Shown piece after piece: positions 15,479-21,797 of a stretch of 51,736 nucleotides of DNA. The notes under the pieces are model-generated. The model had not been told where the DNA came from. It searched no databases and saw only the letters and a list, made by a program, of their open reading frames with translations. The position numbers and the translations under genes are program-made. The DNA lies in assembly GCA_027064005.1 (NCBI GenBank), contig JAMOQM010000051.1, forward strand, positions 1 to 51,736, written 5' to 3'. The number at the start of each line of letters is the position of its first letter. Position 1 is the first letter of the stretch. The DNA is from Candidatus Cloacimonadota bacterium. GTDB lineage: Bacteria > Cloacimonadota > Cloacimonadia > Cloacimonadales > JAMOQM01.

Positions 15479-17146
15479 CTATTTATGGTAAATATTTTTA
15501 ATTGCATCAATATCGACATCTTCTTTTTTATATTTGACATTAAAGAATTTCTCAAAATATTCAAAGATATAATTACTATCTATCAAAACATCCAAAATAC
15601 TAGAATCAATTTCATTATTGCTTGCCATTTTTGCCAAAATTGTTAAAGTTTCCATGATTGTCTTACCTTTTTTATAAGGTCTATCCGTAGCAGTTAAGGC
15701 TTCAAAAATATCGGCGATTGCAATAATCCTAGCCGGAAAAGGAATTTGCTCTGCCGTATAGTGAAAAGGATAACCTTTACCATTCAATTTTTCATGATGT
15801 AAAGAAGCATAAATCGGGATATTTTTGTATTTTTTCGGGAAAGTTAATGAGGATAAAATATTGTAGCTGGTTTGAGCGTGTTCCTGCATTTTCCCAATTT
15901 CATCTTTAGTGAGCGTACCTTTCCTTACCGATAATTTTTCATATTCATCATCTGTTAAAATCCGATATTCTGTATCATTAGAGAAATATCTAAATTTATA
16001 TATTTCCTCTAATTCTTGAACAAATTCATCGCTCATAAATTCAGCTCCGCTGTTCATTATATTAATAAAAACTTTAAATATTTCAATCTCTTTCACTATT
16101 TTATCAAATTTTTTTAAAGGTTCATTTTTCAGTTCAGCAATTTCTTTATCCTTTTTCACAATATTGATAATTAAGTTACACCTTTCTTCAACAACAGAGA
16201 TTCCATCAATAACCGCCTCTAACTTTGTTGATTTATCCATAATAAATTCCGGAGTAATTATTTTCCCAAAATCATGCATTAAAGCAGCTAATCGAATTTC
16301 TTGAATTTCATCTTGAGAAAATGTTTTATTTGGGAAAATCTTTTTATCATTTTGAATAACGTTCACTAATTCTTTGGAAATAACCCCAACTCTTTGGATA
16401 TGAGCACCGGTATATTTTGATTTCCGGTCAATAGCCTGAGCAATAGATGAAACAAATTGAAGAATAAGACTTTCCAACCCTTTAATTAATTGGCGGTTGT
16501 TTAAAGCAATTCCAGCTAAAGAAGCCAATGAGTTTATGACATGAATATCTTCATTGGAAAAAACATCAATTTCGCCATTTTCATTTATTGGATTTATCAA
16601 TTGAATTACACCAATTACATCATTTTCATGACTTTTTAGCGGTAAAGCCAATACCGATTTCGTTCTATAATTATTTTTTTTATCGTATCGTTTTGTTCCG
16701 GTAGTTACAAATTGAGTTTGTTTATAAATATCATCATAACACTTAATTTCTCCGGTATGAGCAACATAAGCAGCTTGAGTCTTCATCAAAGGAGAAGAAT
16801 TCTCGTCAAATAAAGGAATTGGCATCCAATTCAAATTTCCTTTCAAACGAGAAAGATTGATCTCTAAAGTTTTGTTATAGACAACTTCAAAATTCAAATA
16901 TTTTTTATTCTCAGAAAGCGTATAAATTGTTGCTCCATCAGCATTTGTAAAAAATAATGATTCCTGAAGAATCATATCAAAAATATCATCCAATTCTTTT
17001 TTTGAGGAAAGTGAAAGTCCAATTTCAGTCAATCTATCAATATGTTTAAATTGTCGTTTTGAAAAAGTATTTATTTCTTTGACTACATTATTTAGCATCA
17101 GATTCAGTTTTTTATTACTACTCAGATTAATCATTTTTTTCTCCAT
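15479..17146 (-). CDS. GAF + HD-GYP cyclic-di-GMP phosphodiesterase
   Basis: GAF (YRTKSVLALPL...GVIQLIN); HDFGK, HHEKLNGKGYP, ADIFEALTA.DRPYK. Confidence 0.85.
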   Translation of the reverse strand: MEKKMINLSSNKKLNLMLNNVVKEINTFSKRQFKHIDRLTEIGLSLSSKKELDDIFDMILQESLFFTNADGATIYTLSENKKYLNFEVVYNKTLEINLSRLKGNLNWMPIPLFDENSSPLMKTQAAYVAHTGEIKCYDDIYKQTQFVTTGTKRYDKKNNYRTKSVLALPLKSHENDVIGVIQLINPINENGEIDVFSNEDIHVINSLASLAGIALNNRQLIKGLESLILQFVSSIAQAIDRKSKYTGAHIQRVGVISKELVNVIQNDKKIFPNKTFSQDEIQEIRLAALMHDFGKIITPEFIMDKSTKLEAVIDGISVVEERCNLIINIVKKDKEIAELKNEPLKKFDKIVKEIEIFKVFINIMNSGAEFMSDEFVQELEEIYKFRYFSNDTEYRILTDDEYEKLSVRKGTLTKDEIGKMQEHAQTSYNILSSLTFPKKYKNIPIYASLHHEKLNGKGYPFHYTAEQIPFPARIIAIADIFEALTATDRPYKKGKTIMETLTILAKMASNNEIDSSILDVLIDSNYIFEYFEKFFNVKYKKEDVDIDAIKNIYHK

Positions 17147-17345
17147 TATAAAATTTCTTTATCTCAAAAAAAATCTTAATTATTATTTTTTTTACAGCCT
17201 TTATGTCAAACAAATTATATCCTGTGATTAATAGATAGAGAACCTTTTCCTGAATATAATTTTTGATATTATACTTTTTTACTTAGATATTTTCACCTTT
17301 CCCTGAAAAATAAATTTACATATCTTATTCTAAAATAAAATTTAG

Positions 17346-17373
17346 TTTAGTTTTCAAAAATTTGTAACGATAG
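17346..17373 (+). promoter_or_regulatory. Putative sigma-28 (FliA) promoter of the orf-flagellin operon
   Basis: TTTAGTTT-N12-AACGATAG versus consensus TAAAGTTT-N11-GCCGATAA; RBS AGGAG follows. Confidence 0.4.
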
Positions 17374-17389
17374 AGAATTAGGAGTAAAA

Positions 17390-18169
17390 ATGAATTACAA
17401 TGATACTGATTTTATTAAAGATGTTTCCGAATTAACAAAAATTAAATTTGTCGGAACTGATAAAGATGCTCCGAAAAAACGTAAAAATAAAAGGAATCAA
17501 CATCCCAAAAAAGAAAAGAAAGAATCATTTGCTTCTGAATTAGAAGAAGACTTAAATAAAGAAACCGGCGAAAAAAATAATCTAAATATCGGAATTAAAG
17601 TTCTTGAAAAAAGAAATTCGGAACTATCGGCATTATCGGATATGATTAGGAATGAAAATTATGACGAAAATTTGATTCAAAGGAAAATCTTAAAAAGTGA
17701 TAGAGATTTATACGAAATAAGTTCCGATTCACCGTTATTACCTAATGAAAAAGATTTAGAAAAAGATGACTTGGAAAAATTACAGCAATTAGATAGATAT
17801 TACGCACGTTATGAAAAGCTTACAAATGAACAAAAAGAAACAATTATTAAAGAAGATTTTGACCTATTAAATAAACTATTCTCCGAAAAAAACACAATTT
17901 TAGCAAAAATACAAACCCTACAAAATACAATCAATTACGAAAAAATTGCCCACTCTGAAGAAAAAAAAATTAAAGCAAACATCATCCTTTCCGATATTCA
18001 TAATAGGATGAACGGAGTTATTCAAATCGAAGACGAAAATAACTCCAGATTATGTTCTTTAAAAAATGAAATGAAAGTTGCTCTGGGAAAAATCCATAAA
18101 GGTTCCCAAATGATTGCTAAGTACGGCAATAAACATATTTCATCTCATTTTATAGATAAAAAAACATAG
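17390..18169 (+). CDS. Hypothetical protein; C-terminal half resembles FlgN/FliT-type flagellar chaperones
   Basis: Helical LTxEQKE.I..EDFD.L..L..EK pattern; directly upstream of the flagellins. Confidence 0.45.
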   Translation: MNYNDTDFIKDVSELTKIKFVGTDKDAPKKRKNKRNQHPKKEKKESFASELEEDLNKETGEKNNLNIGIKVLEKRNSELSALSDMIRNENYDENLIQRKILKSDRDLYEISSDSPLLPNEKDLEKDDLEKLQQLDRYYARYEKLTNEQKETIIKEDFDLLNKLFSEKNTILAKIQTLQNTINYEKIAHSEEKKIKANIILSDIHNRMNGVIQIEDENNSRLCSLKNEMKVALGKIHKGSQMIAKYGNKHISSHFIDKKT

Positions 18170-18181
18170 ATTTTTTTAAAA

Positions 18182-18210
18182 GGCAAGGATGCCGAATTTT
18201 TCAAGGAGGA
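18182..18210 (+). promoter_or_regulatory. CsrA-binding hairpin + SD of flagellin 1
   Basis: GGCA-AGGA-TGCC stem-loop, then CAAGGAGGA. Confidence 0.75.
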
Positions 18211-18213
18211 AAA

Positions 18214-19188
18214 ATGTCATTGAATGTTCATAATAATATGAGCGCACAAATCGCTTCGTATTATCTTCAGAAAAACTACAACAGCATGGGAAAATCCATC
18301 GAACATTTATCTTCAGGATTAAGAATTAACAACGCCGGTGATGATCCTCAAGGAAAAGCCTTAAGCGAAATGTTAAAAAGTAGAGCAAATGTTTTAGATA
18401 AAGGCATAACAAATATCCAAATGGCAATTTCAGTTTCACAAACAGCAGAAGGTTCTTTAAGTATAATTGATGAAAAACTAATCCGAATGAAAGAACTCGC
18501 AGAACAATCAGCAACCGGAACTTATAACAATACTCAGCGATTAATGTTAAATTCAGAATTCAATGAAATGGCTGCTGAAATCGATAGAATCGCCAATAGC
18601 ACAAATTTATCCGGATTAAAATTATTGGATGGTAATATTTCAACTTCAACAAAATATACTGCAAATAACGGTTGGTACAAAGCTGATTCCGATTCTTATT
18701 CGACCGGAGATTCAAAAGATGTTTATGCCCATTTTACTAAAAACGAAAAATTAAAAGTACATTTCGGACAAACAAACAGCAGTGCCGAAGATTACTACTA
18801 TATTCATTTAAAAGATATGACAACAAATGGCTTGTTTCACGATTTTATTGATCCAACTGATTCAACCAAAAATACAATTTCAAAAGTCATGGCAATTTCT
18901 TCATCAGCTTCAGCTCAATTAGCTCTTGAACAAATTAATTCTGCCATGGTTTATAAGGAAGAAGAGCGTTCCCATTTGGGAGCAATTCAAAATCGTTTAG
19001 AAACTTCGTTAAATCATTTAGAAATAACTAAAGAACAAGTCGAAAGAACCGACTCTATATTATCGGATGTAGATGTGGCGACAGAAATGTCGAATTTCAC
19101 AAAATTCCAAGTTCTTACTCAAAGTGCAACGTCGATGTTGGCTCAGGCAAACGCCCTGCCACAGATGGTTTTAAAACTTTTAGCTTAA
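18214..19188 (+). CDS. fliC: Flagellin (divergent paralog 1)
   Basis: LSSGLRINNAGDD, QTAEG, LGAIQNRLE, DVDVATEM, LAQAN. Confidence 0.92.
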   Translation: MSLNVHNNMSAQIASYYLQKNYNSMGKSIEHLSSGLRINNAGDDPQGKALSEMLKSRANVLDKGITNIQMAISVSQTAEGSLSIIDEKLIRMKELAEQSATGTYNNTQRLMLNSEFNEMAAEIDRIANSTNLSGLKLLDGNISTSTKYTANNGWYKADSDSYSTGDSKDVYAHFTKNEKLKVHFGQTNSSAEDYYYIHLKDMTTNGLFHDFIDPTDSTKNTISKVMAISSSASAQLALEQINSAMVYKEEERSHLGAIQNRLETSLNHLEITKEQVERTDSILSDVDVATEMSNFTKFQVLTQSATSMLAQANALPQMVLKLLA

Positions 19189-19283
19189 GAATTATTTAGA
19201 CCTTTATACAAGAACATACACGTGCATAGCCAAAAATTAGGTTAGAAGGCTCTCGTATTATTCATAATTAATACAAAAAATAA

Positions 19284-19320
19284 ATGCAAGGATGCATAAA
19301 AAAAACAATTCAGGGAGGAT
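19284..19320 (+). promoter_or_regulatory. CsrA-binding hairpin + SD of flagellin 2
   Basis: ATGCA-AGGA-TGCAT stem-loop, then CAGGGAGGA. Confidence 0.75.
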
Positions 19321-19323
19321 ATT

Positions 19324-20313
19324 ATGTCTTTAGTAATTAACCATAACCTTATGTCTATGAACACTGCGAGAAATTTAAACAATTCGTATAATAGTTTGGC
19401 AAAATCCGTACAAAGATTATCTACAGGTATGAGAATCAATTCTGCTGCCGATGATGCCGCCGGATTGGCTATTAGAGAAGGAATGAGATCTGATATTTCA
19501 GCACTGAATCAAGGTGTAAGAAATGCTCAAGATGGTATTTCGATGATTCAAACTGCAGAAGGAGCTCTCGGGGTAGTTGATGAAAAACTAATTCGTATGA
19601 AAGAGTTGGCAGAACAAGCTGCAACCGGTACTTATACAAACGCTCAAAGATTAATCATTCATTCGGAATTTTCTGCAATGGCTGCAGAAATAGACAGAAT
19701 CGCAACTTCCACAGATTTCAACGGTGTAAAATTATTGGACGGTAACGTTTCCGTAGCCGGAAATGGTGGTCAATGGACAGCCAATAATACATGGAGTGCA
19801 ACAGAAGGATTGTGGACAAATAGTAGCGGATGGAAAGAAGTTACCGGCAATGCAACCAATGGCAATATTACAGGTGGAGTGAAAATTCACTTTGGTGCCG
19901 GAAATAATCGTGCCGAAGATTATTACTTTGTTCGTTTAGGAGATATGAGAACGACTTCATTATTCGCAAGTAGCGGAACAACTGTCAGCTCAGCAACTAG
20001 TGCAGCCAATACAATTGCGGTATCAACACAACATGCAGCTCAAATAGCTCTTGAACAATTGAATACAGCAATGACAAGAAAAGAAAACATGCGAGCATCA
20101 CTTGGTGCTGTTCAAAATCGTCTTGAAAACACTATTTCGAACATTTCAATTCAGTCTGAGAATTTACAAGCTTCCGAGTCTCGTATTTCTGATGTTGATG
20201 TAGCAACAGAAATGACGAATTTCACAAGAAATCAAGTATTGACTCAATCAGCTGTAGCAATGCTTTCCCAAGCAAACTCATTACCTCAAATGGCATTGAG
20301 ATTACTCGGATAA
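19324..20313 (+). CDS. fliC: Flagellin (paralog 2)
   Basis: LSTGMRINSAADDAAGLAI, LGAVQNRLE, SRISDVDVATEM, LSQANSLPQ. Confidence 0.95.
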   Translation: MSLVINHNLMSMNTARNLNNSYNSLAKSVQRLSTGMRINSAADDAAGLAIREGMRSDISALNQGVRNAQDGISMIQTAEGALGVVDEKLIRMKELAEQAATGTYTNAQRLIIHSEFSAMAAEIDRIATSTDFNGVKLLDGNVSVAGNGGQWTANNTWSATEGLWTNSSGWKEVTGNATNGNITGGVKIHFGAGNNRAEDYYFVRLGDMRTTSLFASSGTTVSSATSAANTIAVSTQHAAQIALEQLNTAMTRKENMRASLGAVQNRLENTISNISIQSENLQASESRISDVDVATEMTNFTRNQVLTQSAVAMLSQANSLPQMALRLLG

Positions 20314-20339
20314 ATTAGAAAAACAGCATTTAATTATAC

Positions 20340-20364
20340 AGGGGAATAAAAAATTCCCCTTTTT
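20340..20364 (+). terminator. Intrinsic terminator after flagellin 2
   Basis: AGGGGAAT-aaaaa-ATTCCCCT-TTTT. Confidence 0.8.
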
Positions 20365-20413
20365 AATATAAACAATTTAACAATTATGAAAACGAATACT
20401 ACGAAAGTCAGTA

Positions 20414-20422
20414 TGTTATAAT
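20414..20422 (+). promoter_or_regulatory. Putative extended -10 sigma70 promoter of flagellin 3
   Basis: TG-T-TATAAT, downstream of the fla2 terminator and just 5' of the structured leader. Confidence 0.45.
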
Positions 20423-20438
20423 TTTATGACGTGTAGGT

Positions 20439-20560
20439 TAGTTCCTCATTTTTTTGGTTCGGTAAAATAGTCTGGTAAAACAATAGAAATGCTGAGATGA
20501 TAAATTAAGGATTAGTCCTTAACTTGGCAAGGATGCCACTAACCGATCAAGGAGGAATTA
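20439..20560 (+). promoter_or_regulatory. Structured 5' leader of flagellin 3 (anti-SD long hairpin with embedded CsrA site)
   Basis: Nested pairings 20439-47/20552-60, 20454-63/20542-50, 20468-77/20534-41, 20490-96/20523-29, 20505-11/20516-22. Alternative CsrA hairpin TGGCA-AGGA-TGCCA at 20525-38. Confidence 0.7.
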
Positions 20561-21549
20561 TGTCACTCGTAATAAACCACAATATGATGGCCATGAATTC
20601 AGCAAGAAACTTAAACAAGTCTTATAACAGTTTGTCTAGGTCAGTTCAACGCTTATCAACAGGAATGAGAATCAATTCGGCAGCAGATGATGCAGCAGGA
20701 TTGGCAATTCGTGAAGGTATGCGTTCGGATATCGCGTCATTGAATCAAGGTGTAAGAAATGCTCAAGACGGTATTTCATTGATTCAGACGGCAGAAGGTG
20801 CACTCGGTGTTGTTGATGAAAAACTCATTCGTATGAAAGAGTTGGCTGAACAAGCAGCAACCGGTACCTATACTAATGCTCAGAGATTAATTATCCATTC
20901 TGAATTTTCTGCAATGGCTGCAGAAATTGACAGAATCGCAACTTCAACGGATTTTAACGGTGTTAAGTTGTTAAACGGTAATGTTTCCGTAGCAGGTAGT
21001 GGAGGTAGTTGGACAACCAACAATACATGGAGTGCAACTGAAGGAATGTGGACAAATAGCAGCGGATGGAAAGAAGCTAACGGTACTGCAGCCAATGGAA
21101 ACATAAAAGGTGGAGTAAAAATTCACTTTGGAGCAGGAAATAACCGTGCAGAAGATTACTATTTCGTAAGAATTGGCGATATGAGAACAACATCATTATT
21201 TGCAGCAACCGGAACAGCTGTTAGTTCGGCAACTTCAGCGGCAAATACAATTGCAGTTTCAACTCAACATGCAGCTCAAATGGCTCTTGAACAATTGAAT
21301 ACGGCAATGACAAGAAAAGAGAACATGCGTGCTTCTCTCGGTGCTGTTCAAAATCGTCTTGAAAACACTATTTCAAACATTTCGATTCAGTCTGAAAATT
21401 TACAAGCTTCCGAGTCTCGTATTTCTGATGTTGATGTAGCAACAGAAATGACGAATTTCACAAGGAATCAAGTATTGACTCAGTCTGCTGTAGCAATGCT
21501 TTCACAAGCAAACTCGTTACCACAAATGGCACTTAGACTTATCGGATAG
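20560..21549 (+). CDS. fliC: Flagellin (paralog 3)
   Basis: Near-identical to paralog 2. Start set to ATG 20560 (SD GGAGG, MSLVINHN) rather than TTG 20524. Confidence 0.95.
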   Translation: MSLVINHNMMAMNSARNLNKSYNSLSRSVQRLSTGMRINSAADDAAGLAIREGMRSDIASLNQGVRNAQDGISLIQTAEGALGVVDEKLIRMKELAEQAATGTYTNAQRLIIHSEFSAMAAEIDRIATSTDFNGVKLLNGNVSVAGSGGSWTTNNTWSATEGMWTNSSGWKEANGTAANGNIKGGVKIHFGAGNNRAEDYYFVRIGDMRTTSLFAATGTAVSSATSAANTIAVSTQHAAQMALEQLNTAMTRKENMRASLGAVQNRLENTISNISIQSENLQASESRISDVDVATEMTNFTRNQVLTQSAVAMLSQANSLPQMALRLIG

Positions 21550-21588
21550 TTAGGTTCGGAAGAGATAGCACTATCACAGTAAAATTTC

Positions 21589-21617
21589 TCAAAAGGAGAA
21601 ACTCTTTTGAACATTTT
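21589..21617 (+). terminator. Possible weak terminator after flagellin 3
   Basis: TCAAAAG(G)AG-aaa-CTCTTTTGA followed by ACATTTT. Confidence 0.45.
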
Positions 21618-21640
21618 GGAAACACTCTGTAAAAAGTCTA

Positions 21641-21669
21641 TTGACAAAAAACTATTCGGCGAGTAAATT
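21641..21669 (+). promoter_or_regulatory. Sigma70 promoter with no downstream ORF
   Basis: TTGACA-17 nt-TAAATT. Confidence 0.65.
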
Positions 21670-21674
21670 AAGAT

Positions 21675-21797
21675 AAAGAAAACGAAGTAAATGTGATCTT
21701 GGCAAATCTACTGTGGCAATGTCATAGGGAACTATGATGTTGAGAGTGCTAGGCTAACCGAACCAGATGGGTAGGTACAAATCTGCCCATCATTTTT
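21675..21797 (+). ncRNA. Putative ~120-nt small RNA complementary to the flagellin-3 leader and 3' UTR
   Basis: Promoter, internal 11-bp hairpin with GGAA loop (21717-42), terminator, no ORF, and GC-richer than its flanks. Confidence 0.6.
21766..21797 (+). terminator. Intrinsic terminator of the putative sRNA
   Basis: GATGGGTAGGT-acaa-ATCTGCCCATC-ATTTTT; U-tract on the + strand only. Confidence 0.75.

Follow-up and report, generated by a model that had tools for sequence, protein, structure and literature searches.

The window analyzed here is a single contig stretch of 51,736 nucleotides from a Candidatus Cloacimonadota bacterium of the order Cloacimonadales. It carries three tandem flagellin genes on the + strand, which we call fla1, fla2, and fla3, and the subject of this analysis is the 5′ leader of fla3. 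On balance, this leader appears to belong to a type of structured 5′ leader found before the downstream flagellin genes in flagellated Cloacimonadales, in which flagellin synthesis would be gated at translation by RNA structure together with a CsrA–FliW switch. The three coding sequences and the element that lies between the second and the third are:

18214–19188, + strand: fla1 coding sequence (Pfam)
19324–20313, + strand: fla2 coding sequence (Pfam)
20340–20360, + strand: intrinsic-terminator-like hairpin and T run (8 pairs, 4 of them G-C, then TTTTT), 3′ of flagellin-2
20560–21549, + strand: flagellin-3 (fla3) coding sequence, 329 aa (Pfam Flagellin_N 3.5e-40, Flagellin_C 2.3e-26)

Flagellin-2 and flagellin-3 are 92% identical, and the ATG start codon of fla3 occupies 20560–20562. 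Judged by its sequence, the hairpin at 20340–20360 appears to set fla3 apart from the upstream flagellin genes. Because this terminator-like element follows fla2, the 246-nt spacer must either supply the transcription start of fla3 or receive read-through. The leader elements found in that spacer, in 5′ to 3′ order, are:

20414–20422, + strand: TGTTATAAT, an extended −10-like motif and candidate promoter, which would place the transcription start near 20429
20439–20447, + strand: 5′ strand of helix P0, the anti-Shine–Dalgarno (anti-SD) tract UAGUUCCUC, which pairs with 20552–20560 through 9 pairs
20453–20463, + strand: 5′ strand of helix P1, the closing helix of the leader domain (5′ arm of helix 2 in the original prediction), from the minimum free energy (MFE) fold and compensatory changes in relatives
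20470–20498, + strand: local hairpin P2, 20470–20477 with 20490–20498 and G20494 bulged, from the MFE fold, pair probability 0.5–0.6
20505–20522, + strand: hairpin P3, UUAAGGA-UUAG-UCCUUAA, 20505–20511 with 20516–20522 (the apex of the original prediction), probability ~1.0
20525–20538, + strand: CsrA-type hairpin P4, 20525–20529 with 20534–20538, loop AGGA at 20530–20533, presumed CsrA site 1
20542–20551, + strand: 3′ strand of P1, immediately 5′ to the Shine–Dalgarno (SD) motif, from the MFE fold and comparative evidence
20549–20555, + strand: SD sequence AAGGAGG, presumed CsrA site 2 with GGA at 20551–20553, an invariant SD block in relatives
20552–20560, + strand: 3′ strand of P0, which runs from the SD's GAGG through the spacer to the first base of AUG, from the MFE fold and pair probabilities

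Folding of positions 20429–20575 gave a multibranch MFE structure of −35.3 kcal/mol (z = −2.32), with 2 of 200 shuffled sequences equally good. The original prediction had drawn this region as a rod of five nested helices; all ten of the strings it quoted lie where it placed them, and every pair in the five helices is standard. Upon refolding, its helix 1 (P0), helix 2 (P1), and apex hairpin (P3) are retained in the MFE structure, and the local hairpins P2 and P4 replace helices 3 and 4. Helix 2 takes the form of 20453–20458 plus 20460–20463 paired with 20542–20551, that is, with an extra U-G pair and the bulge shifted by one base. Pair probabilities are ~1.0 (0.85–1.0) for P0, ~1.0 for P3, and 0.89 for the GGA hairpin P4; that of P1 is ~0.55, shared with an adjacent register. 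The corresponding values are 0.03–0.09 for helix 3 and ~0.10 for helix 4, neither of which is conserved, and the complete rod, at −29.2 kcal/mol, lies 6.1 kcal/mol above the MFE. It had also been proposed that the fold hides the CsrA site and excludes the CsrA hairpin, so that the leader would be bistable between the two states. This part did not hold up: P4 reaches its probability of 0.89 inside the SD-masked fold, and in the model the SD is masked while the CsrA-type hairpin is displayed, not excluded.

The pairing of the SD and the A of AUG with the upstream anti-SD, in contrast, forms in all folds that start at 20439 or further upstream, persists under 3′ extension, and recurs as a layout in relatives. 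The fla3 SD is unpaired with a probability of 0.05–0.07, and for 5′ ends at 20448 or later the predicted exposure climbs to 0.1–0.6. When the leader was treated as a possible RNA thermometer, P0 did not melt in silico, its probability staying at 0.91–0.98 across 25–65 °C. Taken alone, single-sequence folding suggests this architecture modestly rather than decisively; the comparative evidence is stronger.

Relatives of the same order have flagellin arrays with three kinds of leader, of which class 1 precedes the downstream genes of the array. The fla3 leader and the class-1 leaders share a 5′ GAUUGGUUUGGU block, a CAGYAGAU block, a hairpin, a GGA hairpin, and AACCAAUCAAGGAGG before the AUG. The first and last of these conserved blocks pair with each other and thus form P1. 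When 33 leaders are aligned by MAFFT on sequence alone, 84.2% of the 297 P1 cells pair and six of the nine pairs are changed on both sides; none of 500 shuffles reached the observed pairing, slid controls gave at most 51.5%, and P1 was the sole helix that RNAalifold found. The 5′ arm of P1 is a near repeat (AUUGGU UUGGU), which makes two registers possible (columns 83–94 with 197–207 of alignment A1). In one register P1 stops 2 nt short of GGAGG, and in the other it directly adjoins GGAGG; both are open to most leaders, and the window permits mainly the second. This second register, also the one in the original prediction, pairs in 90.5% of cells and was picked by RNAalifold on 16 leaders. At one position of P1 the window has a C-G pair where relatives show U-A. 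Single-sequence MFE folding, too, gives a P1-closed leader for 31 of the 33. When 47 distinct leaders were aligned to a covariance model composed of P1, P3, and P4, P1 was paired in 92.9% of cells with six of eight pairs covarying, and the homologous P3 hairpin was paired in 84.5% of cells with all nine pairs changed on both sides; slid controls stayed at or below 42%. P1 and P3 are conserved with covariation in these alignments. The GGA of P4 is invariant in all 16 of the aligned leaders. The best-conserved unpaired part of the class-1 leaders is the CAGYAGAU block. The strict motif occurs in 29 leaders, and the single-sequence folds of 18 of these put it in a hairpin loop. The counterpart of the block in the window is ACAAUAGAA (20481–20489), within the P2 loop AAACAAUAGAAA (20478–20489).

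The anti-SD recurs as well. With 150 nt of upstream context, the SD is predicted to be less than 0.40 unpaired in 27 of 33 class-1 leaders. Its partner is a pyrimidine tract (CCUC, CUCC, UCUC, and similar) located 0–5 nt 5′ of P1 in most of them. The duplex of the SD 9-mer with the 30 nt before P1 beats shuffled sequences at p ≤ 0.05 in 12 of these leaders and at p ≤ 0.2 in 28. Among the 47 distinct matches, which include two rows outside class 1 (the fla1 leader of the window and L028:1366), the mean duplex energy is −6.1 kcal/mol, compared with −4.0 kcal/mol for a control segment 70–105 nt upstream. The duplex is stronger than its control in 38 of the 47, and it reaches −5 kcal/mol or better in 34 leaders versus 12 controls (Wilcoxon P 2.7e-5). 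The tract mostly ends 1–4 nt before P1. Five leaders have no separate tract (L023a, L030b, L004a, L009a, L003b), and in these P1 extends directly into the AAGG of the SD. The tract varies in sequence, with its position and its SD target kept, and helices 1 and 2 are thus the conserved part of the fold in the original prediction.

CsrA sites typically show AGGA in a hairpin loop. A GCAAGGAUGC hairpin is found in all three flagellin leaders of the window, 18–24 nt before the GGA of the SD: at 18182–18193 for fla1, at 19285–19296 for fla2, and as P4 for fla3. The genome encodes both CsrA (87 aa, 77 bits) and FliW (151 aa, 134 bits), each above its Pfam cut-off, on one contig in the order flgK, csrA, a flgL-like gene, and fliW. 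On hag, flaA, and glgC, CsrA blocks ribosome binding through a hairpin site plus an SD site, and FliW antagonizes CsrA (PMC7652899, PMC4894983). A single CsrA dimer can bridge sites 10–63 nt apart (PMC7652899), a range that includes the 20 nt between the GGA of P4 and that of the SD in fla3. In its sequence, then, the fla3 leader has the features expected of a CsrA/FliW-controlled flagellin leader of the hag or flaA type.

We searched for the leader family with the covariance model. Of the order's 151 genomes, 20 contained a match, and each of these belongs to a family in which DNA matching the flagellin leader and gene start had also been detected. The matched families are f2 (8/8 genomes), f7 (7/9), and f5, f6, f10, and f13 (1/1 each); f4 (0/54), f11 (0/54), and f12 (0/12) gave none. 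In a phylum-wide sample, 14 of 151 genomes matched, with none among the 21 genomes of f14–f17, families present in that sample only. Among the metagenome loci searched, 14 of 16 Cloacimonadota-like loci matched (16 matches) and none of four Desulfovibrio-like loci did, and 68 flagellin loci of other phyla yielded one weak match. A model built without the window recovered the fla3 leader (R2) at 52.4 bits (E 2e-10, 20453–20563), with fla1 at 29.3 bits and fla2 at 10.9 bits. A search of the whole window against Rfam (release 15, including its flagellar and cyclic-di-GMP motifs) gave no match at gathering scores, and relaxing the E-value to 10 over 17100–20700 gave four chance-level matches to unrelated families. 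A literature search, judged by titles and abstract openings, found no description of Cloacimonadota flagellin leaders or of a flagellin-leader anti-SD.

The closest named flagellin loci belong to Candidatus Cloacimonadota/Cloacimonadales (73–80% identity), followed by Desulfovibrionaceae at ~60%. The genome of the window is the sole member of its own family among those compared, and the best flagellin identity to the window is 80% in the genome collection and 78% in the metagenome collection. Weaker model matches (32 and 31 bits) occur at 339–447 and 1736–1840 of locus L042, a contig titled Fibrobacteria bacterium GUT31. In these, TTCACA-N17-TAATTT stands directly before the P1 arm and there is no anti-SD tract; Either the L042 contig, labelled as another phylum, was mis-binned, or it carries a variant in which transcription begins at P1.

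Since two GGA sites lie 20 nt apart in fla3 and the genome contains csrA and fliW, flagellin-3 synthesis is most likely gated by structure and CsrA–FliW. This reading is built on the complementarity between tract and SD, the ensemble preference for the masked fold, the covariation of P1 and P3, the recurrent anti-SD, the invariant GGA, and the presence of csrA and fliW; the presence of the anti-SD in the transcript, the binding of CsrA, and the means by which the fold opens are inferred. During synthesis, the leader would fold hairpin by hairpin (P2, P3, and P4). The emerging 3′ strand would then allow P1 to close the multibranch domain, and P0 would prolong P1 across a small internal loop. 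With both helices closed, 20542–20560 would be covered, a segment that includes the SD and the A of AUG; full pairing of this segment would make ribosome loading intrinsically hindered. CsrA would hold the exposed P4 loop and either compete for the SD or lock it, and FliW, freed on flagellin export, would lift the CsrA share of the block. As to what might open the mask itself, a factor at the CAGYAGAU loop, processing, or ribosomes on a micro-open reading frame (micro-ORF) over the anti-SD can be offered as leads only.

Several observations weigh against this interpretation: (i) The nearest flagellin is only 78–80% identical, which leaves no fine-scale covariation test for P0 of the fla3 sequence. 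(ii) P4 pairs in only 62–64% of cells, with little covariation. (iii) Column-wise conservation of the P2 stem was not seen: mapped on the alignment, which is poor there, it is paired in 32.9% of cells, and the stem thus depends on single-sequence folds only. (iv) The 47-leader alignment was fitted to the model and is therefore biased toward the model structure. (v) The compared leaders are mutually related, so that the shuffle and Wilcoxon figures overstate independence. (vi) Among 870 SD-bearing open reading frames (ORFs) of the genome, the median probability of an unpaired SD is 0.36, and fla3 (0.07) falls only at the 11th percentile. SD pairing is commonly predicted in this A+T-rich genome (30.8% G+C); SD exposure, not being distinctive here, was dropped as stand-alone evidence. 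(vii) An SD mask of approximately −8 kcal/mol is odd for a bulk protein, and nothing was found that opens it. (viii) The window contains the motif TGNTATAAT four times, where chance predicts 4.5 occurrences, and the promoters of the genome differ from the motif proposed for fla3. (ix) A single metatranscriptome run was compared, by its contigs only, with 19200–21700 (X1, share of words 0.09), and nothing fell on 20292–20627; the run contained short pieces less than 90% alike, plus one 266-nt contig ~99% alike in the 3′ part of fla3.

Regarding the promoter, TGnTATAAT occurs 24 times in intergenic DNA and 177 times in genes across the genome, at equal density and without enrichment upstream of starts, and no TTGACA-like −35 element lies at the proper distance from TGTTATAAT. 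Genome-wide, TTGACA is concentrated 50–100 nt before starts (115 on the forward versus 11 on the reverse strand in that bin). The exact hexamer lies ~57 nt before start codons (145 sites collected) and is accompanied by a weak, A/T-rich −10 ending in T. Neither TATAAT nor the Bacteroidota-type TAnnTTTG is enriched upstream of genes in this genome. A good TTGACA is absent before fla3, the best matches being TTAACA at 20377 and ATGACG at 20426, and no consistent TTGACA was found upstream of class-1 leaders. Two other candidates were rejected. A sigma-28 promoter of fla3 would have to use the closest CGAATA and TAAA, whose spacing exceeds that of the consensus by 3 nt, and UGAGG as a −35 would stand 8–16 nt (mostly 12–14) from a TAGATT-like hexamer, spacers unfit for sigma-70. 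The terminator-like hairpin limits possible starts to 20361 onwards. A start between it and 20439, or read-through from fla2, is predicted to leave P0 intact.

Among alternative explanations, it is unlikely, though worth weighing, that the closing helices serve mainly RNA stability or processing rather than translation. In the window, the paired 5′ region would protect a long-lived mRNA, and in relatives an intergenic processing site would yield separate stable mRNAs. Consistent with co-transcription, the class-1 leaders of relatives sit in spacers of ~135 nt between flagellin genes, without a clear promoter and without a terminator-like element in these shorter spacers. The fla3 leader is also among the most stably folded 5′ regions of its genome, with an MFE between the 1% and 5% quantiles of the ORF comparison described above. 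Stability alone, however, leaves unexplained why the extension of P1 targets the SD, through either a pyrimidine tract or the run of P1 into AAGG.

Transcription could instead start inside or after the anti-SD, for example from the weak pair ATGACG (20426–20431) and ATTTTT (20448–20453), in which case P0 would never form and the leader would be a hag-like CsrA target with one site in a hairpin and one at the SD. The genome's promoters have a strong −35 and a weak A/T-rich −10 ending in T, ATGACG-N16-ATTTTT is the sole −35-like match near the leader, and TGnTATAAT is statistically weightless. We nevertheless regard such a start as rather unlikely. ATGACG has two mismatches to TTGACA, a hexamer seen in exact form at the 145 collected sites, and a start near 20460 would strip most of the 5′ strand of P1, yet P1 shows compensatory changes that include the C-G pair of the window. 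Moreover, the anti-SD tract is retained in the window although its upstream context has been replaced by a terminator and a new spacer. Because P1 is conserved and the tract is retained in this rebuilt context, the RNA quite probably includes both P1 and the anti-SD.

It is also conceivable, but quite improbable, that the domain senses a signal other than CsrA, whether a protein or small ligand at the junction or the CAGYAGAU loop, or ribosomes on a micro-ORF over the anti-SD; in each case P0 and P1 would be opened or locked. The conserved unpaired CAGYAGAU block, with its frequent placement in a hairpin loop, would suit such a sensor. In 19 of 45 leaders, versus 10.7 ± 2.7 in shuffles, a short ORF spans the anti-SD and terminates where P1 begins; the relatedness of the leaders inflates this P value. 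The ORF of the window has 14 codons (20426–20470, ATG at 20426 and TAG at 20468–20470). On the other side, the leader matches no Rfam family, and the micro-ORFs (5–10 codons in relatives) lack an SD and encode peptides that are not conserved. Their stop codons belong to the conserved U(A)GAUUGG block, so the ORFs may be a by-product, and the AUG in the window would lie outside a transcript starting at 20429. An upstream GAGG:CCUC hairpin acting as an anti-anti-SD failed as well, the local folds being weak (−1 to −9 kcal/mol, z +1.2 to −2.6 in 32 of 33 leaders). Framed as a riboregulator with a sensor of its own (the P1-closed junction with the CAGYAGAU loop, which would bind a flagellar factor or metabolite, or micro-ORF ribosomes) that releases the SD, rather than CsrA doing so alone, the idea is doubtful; if it were true, a separate translational switch would control every gene in a tandem flagellin array.

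Finally, the rod of five nested helices alternating with a CsrA-hairpin form is a legitimate suboptimal fold but a very unlikely regulator: in addition to the energy and probability differences given above, only 41.4% of the cells of its third and fourth helices pair on 16 related leaders, a level reached by 89 of 500 shuffles (slid controls 21–33%), and relatives conserve the local hairpins instead.

Control of hag by CsrA and FliW was reportedly described by Yakhnin in 2007 and Mukherjee in 2011, and that of psl by RsmA by Irie in 2010. As presumed for fla3, the flagellin mRNA of the B. subtilis hag system has two CsrA sites, and the SD is overlapped by one of them; the location of csrA and fliW beside late flagellar genes is a further likeness (PMC7652899). 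The two presumed fla3 sites differ in being embedded in a domain of ~110 nt with a conserved long-range helix and an anti-SD, and the SD is predicted to be masked without protein. The C. jejuni flaA 5′ untranslated region (UTR) resembles fla3 in having ANGGA in hairpin loops, compensatory changes, and a FliW that antagonizes CsrA. However, that leader is 45 nt long and has two simple stem-loops with the SD in the second loop, whereas the helix partner of the fla3 SD lies ~105 nt upstream (PMC4894983).

In P. aeruginosa psl, an SD:anti-SD helix encloses a loop GGA site, as it does in fla3, and binding of RsmA, a member of the CsrA family, stabilizes the masked form (PMC7652899). By analogy, the topology of fla3 would allow a comparable stabilization by CsrA, although psl is a single imperfect hairpin in a non-flagellin mRNA and the part enclosed in fla3 is multibranched and holds two additional hairpins. 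E. coli glgC shares with fla3 an upstream GGA hairpin (of high affinity in glgC) and an SD site (of lower affinity), which in glgC are bridged by one CsrA dimer; unlike fla3, glgC is described without a closing helix or an anti-SD (PMC7652899). In E. coli ymdA and moaA the SD is likewise sequestered by structure with CsrA sites within or beside it, but there CsrA opens the structure and activates translation (PMC7652899). For fla3, the putative CsrA action could go in either direction, repression or activation. Lastly, in the isoform-specific SD sequestration of B. subtilis, masking depends on the transcription start, with the long 5′ UTR carrying the masking segment (PMC8208050); in fla3, too, masking would depend on where transcription starts.

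The other flagellin genes of the array have leaders of different types. In the fla1 leader (18197–18214), a local hairpin, UUUUUC-AAGGAG-GAAAAA, carries the SD in its loop, and its final A begins the AUG. This is a classic CsrA-site shape, unlike that of fla3, and relatives of this leader type have CAUC-AAGGAG-GAUG. A class-2 leader type (CUUUnnACAAGnACAUAnnGUGAUG ... ACAAGGAUG ... SD) precedes the gene just upstream of class-1 genes. It includes the fla2 leader (19201–19231), is present in L003, L009, L020, L027, and others, and is preceded in several relatives by a TAAAGT-N15-CGATAT sigma-28-like promoter.

Upstream of fla1 by 44 nt lies orf259 (17390–18169; 259 aa, without a Pfam match), and the pair is syntenic in relatives, where the ORF upstream of the fla1 homolog has a conserved C-terminal ...HFIDTTK. 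It is preceded by a plausible sigma-28-like promoter, TTAGTTTT ... AACGATAG (17343–17369). From this arrangement, orf259, fla1, and fla2 may form a single late flagellar operon that ends at the 20340 terminator. Adjoining the flagellin cluster and transcribed away from it, the − strand at 15479–17146 encodes a GAF plus HD/HD_5 (HD-GYP-like) protein (Pfam) that may be a motility-linked cyclic-di-GMP phosphodiesterase. At the other end, positions 21253–21518 in the 3′ part of fla3 are matched, with 3 differences, by a 267-nt contig from a hydrothermal-vent metatranscriptome. Such contigs cannot show expression; the organism or a close relative may be present at that hydrothermal-vent site.

CsrA and FliW are known to regulate flagellin translation in Bacillus, Campylobacter, and a small number of further organisms, whose leaders are short and simple. 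What is new here is that a flagellin leader of the CsrA type has expanded into a conserved multibranch domain that would mask the SD. In an uncultured phylum, this much larger leader combines covariation, two presumed CsrA sites, a predicted intrinsic SD mask, and a conserved loop, and it is repeated before the downstream genes of tandem flagellin arrays, making it a candidate RNA family outside Rfam. If the mask works as predicted, the leader would offer a natural example in which RNA structure and a CsrA-family protein both act on one ribosome-binding site, and it raises the question of what unlocks the mask when the product is needed in such abundance.

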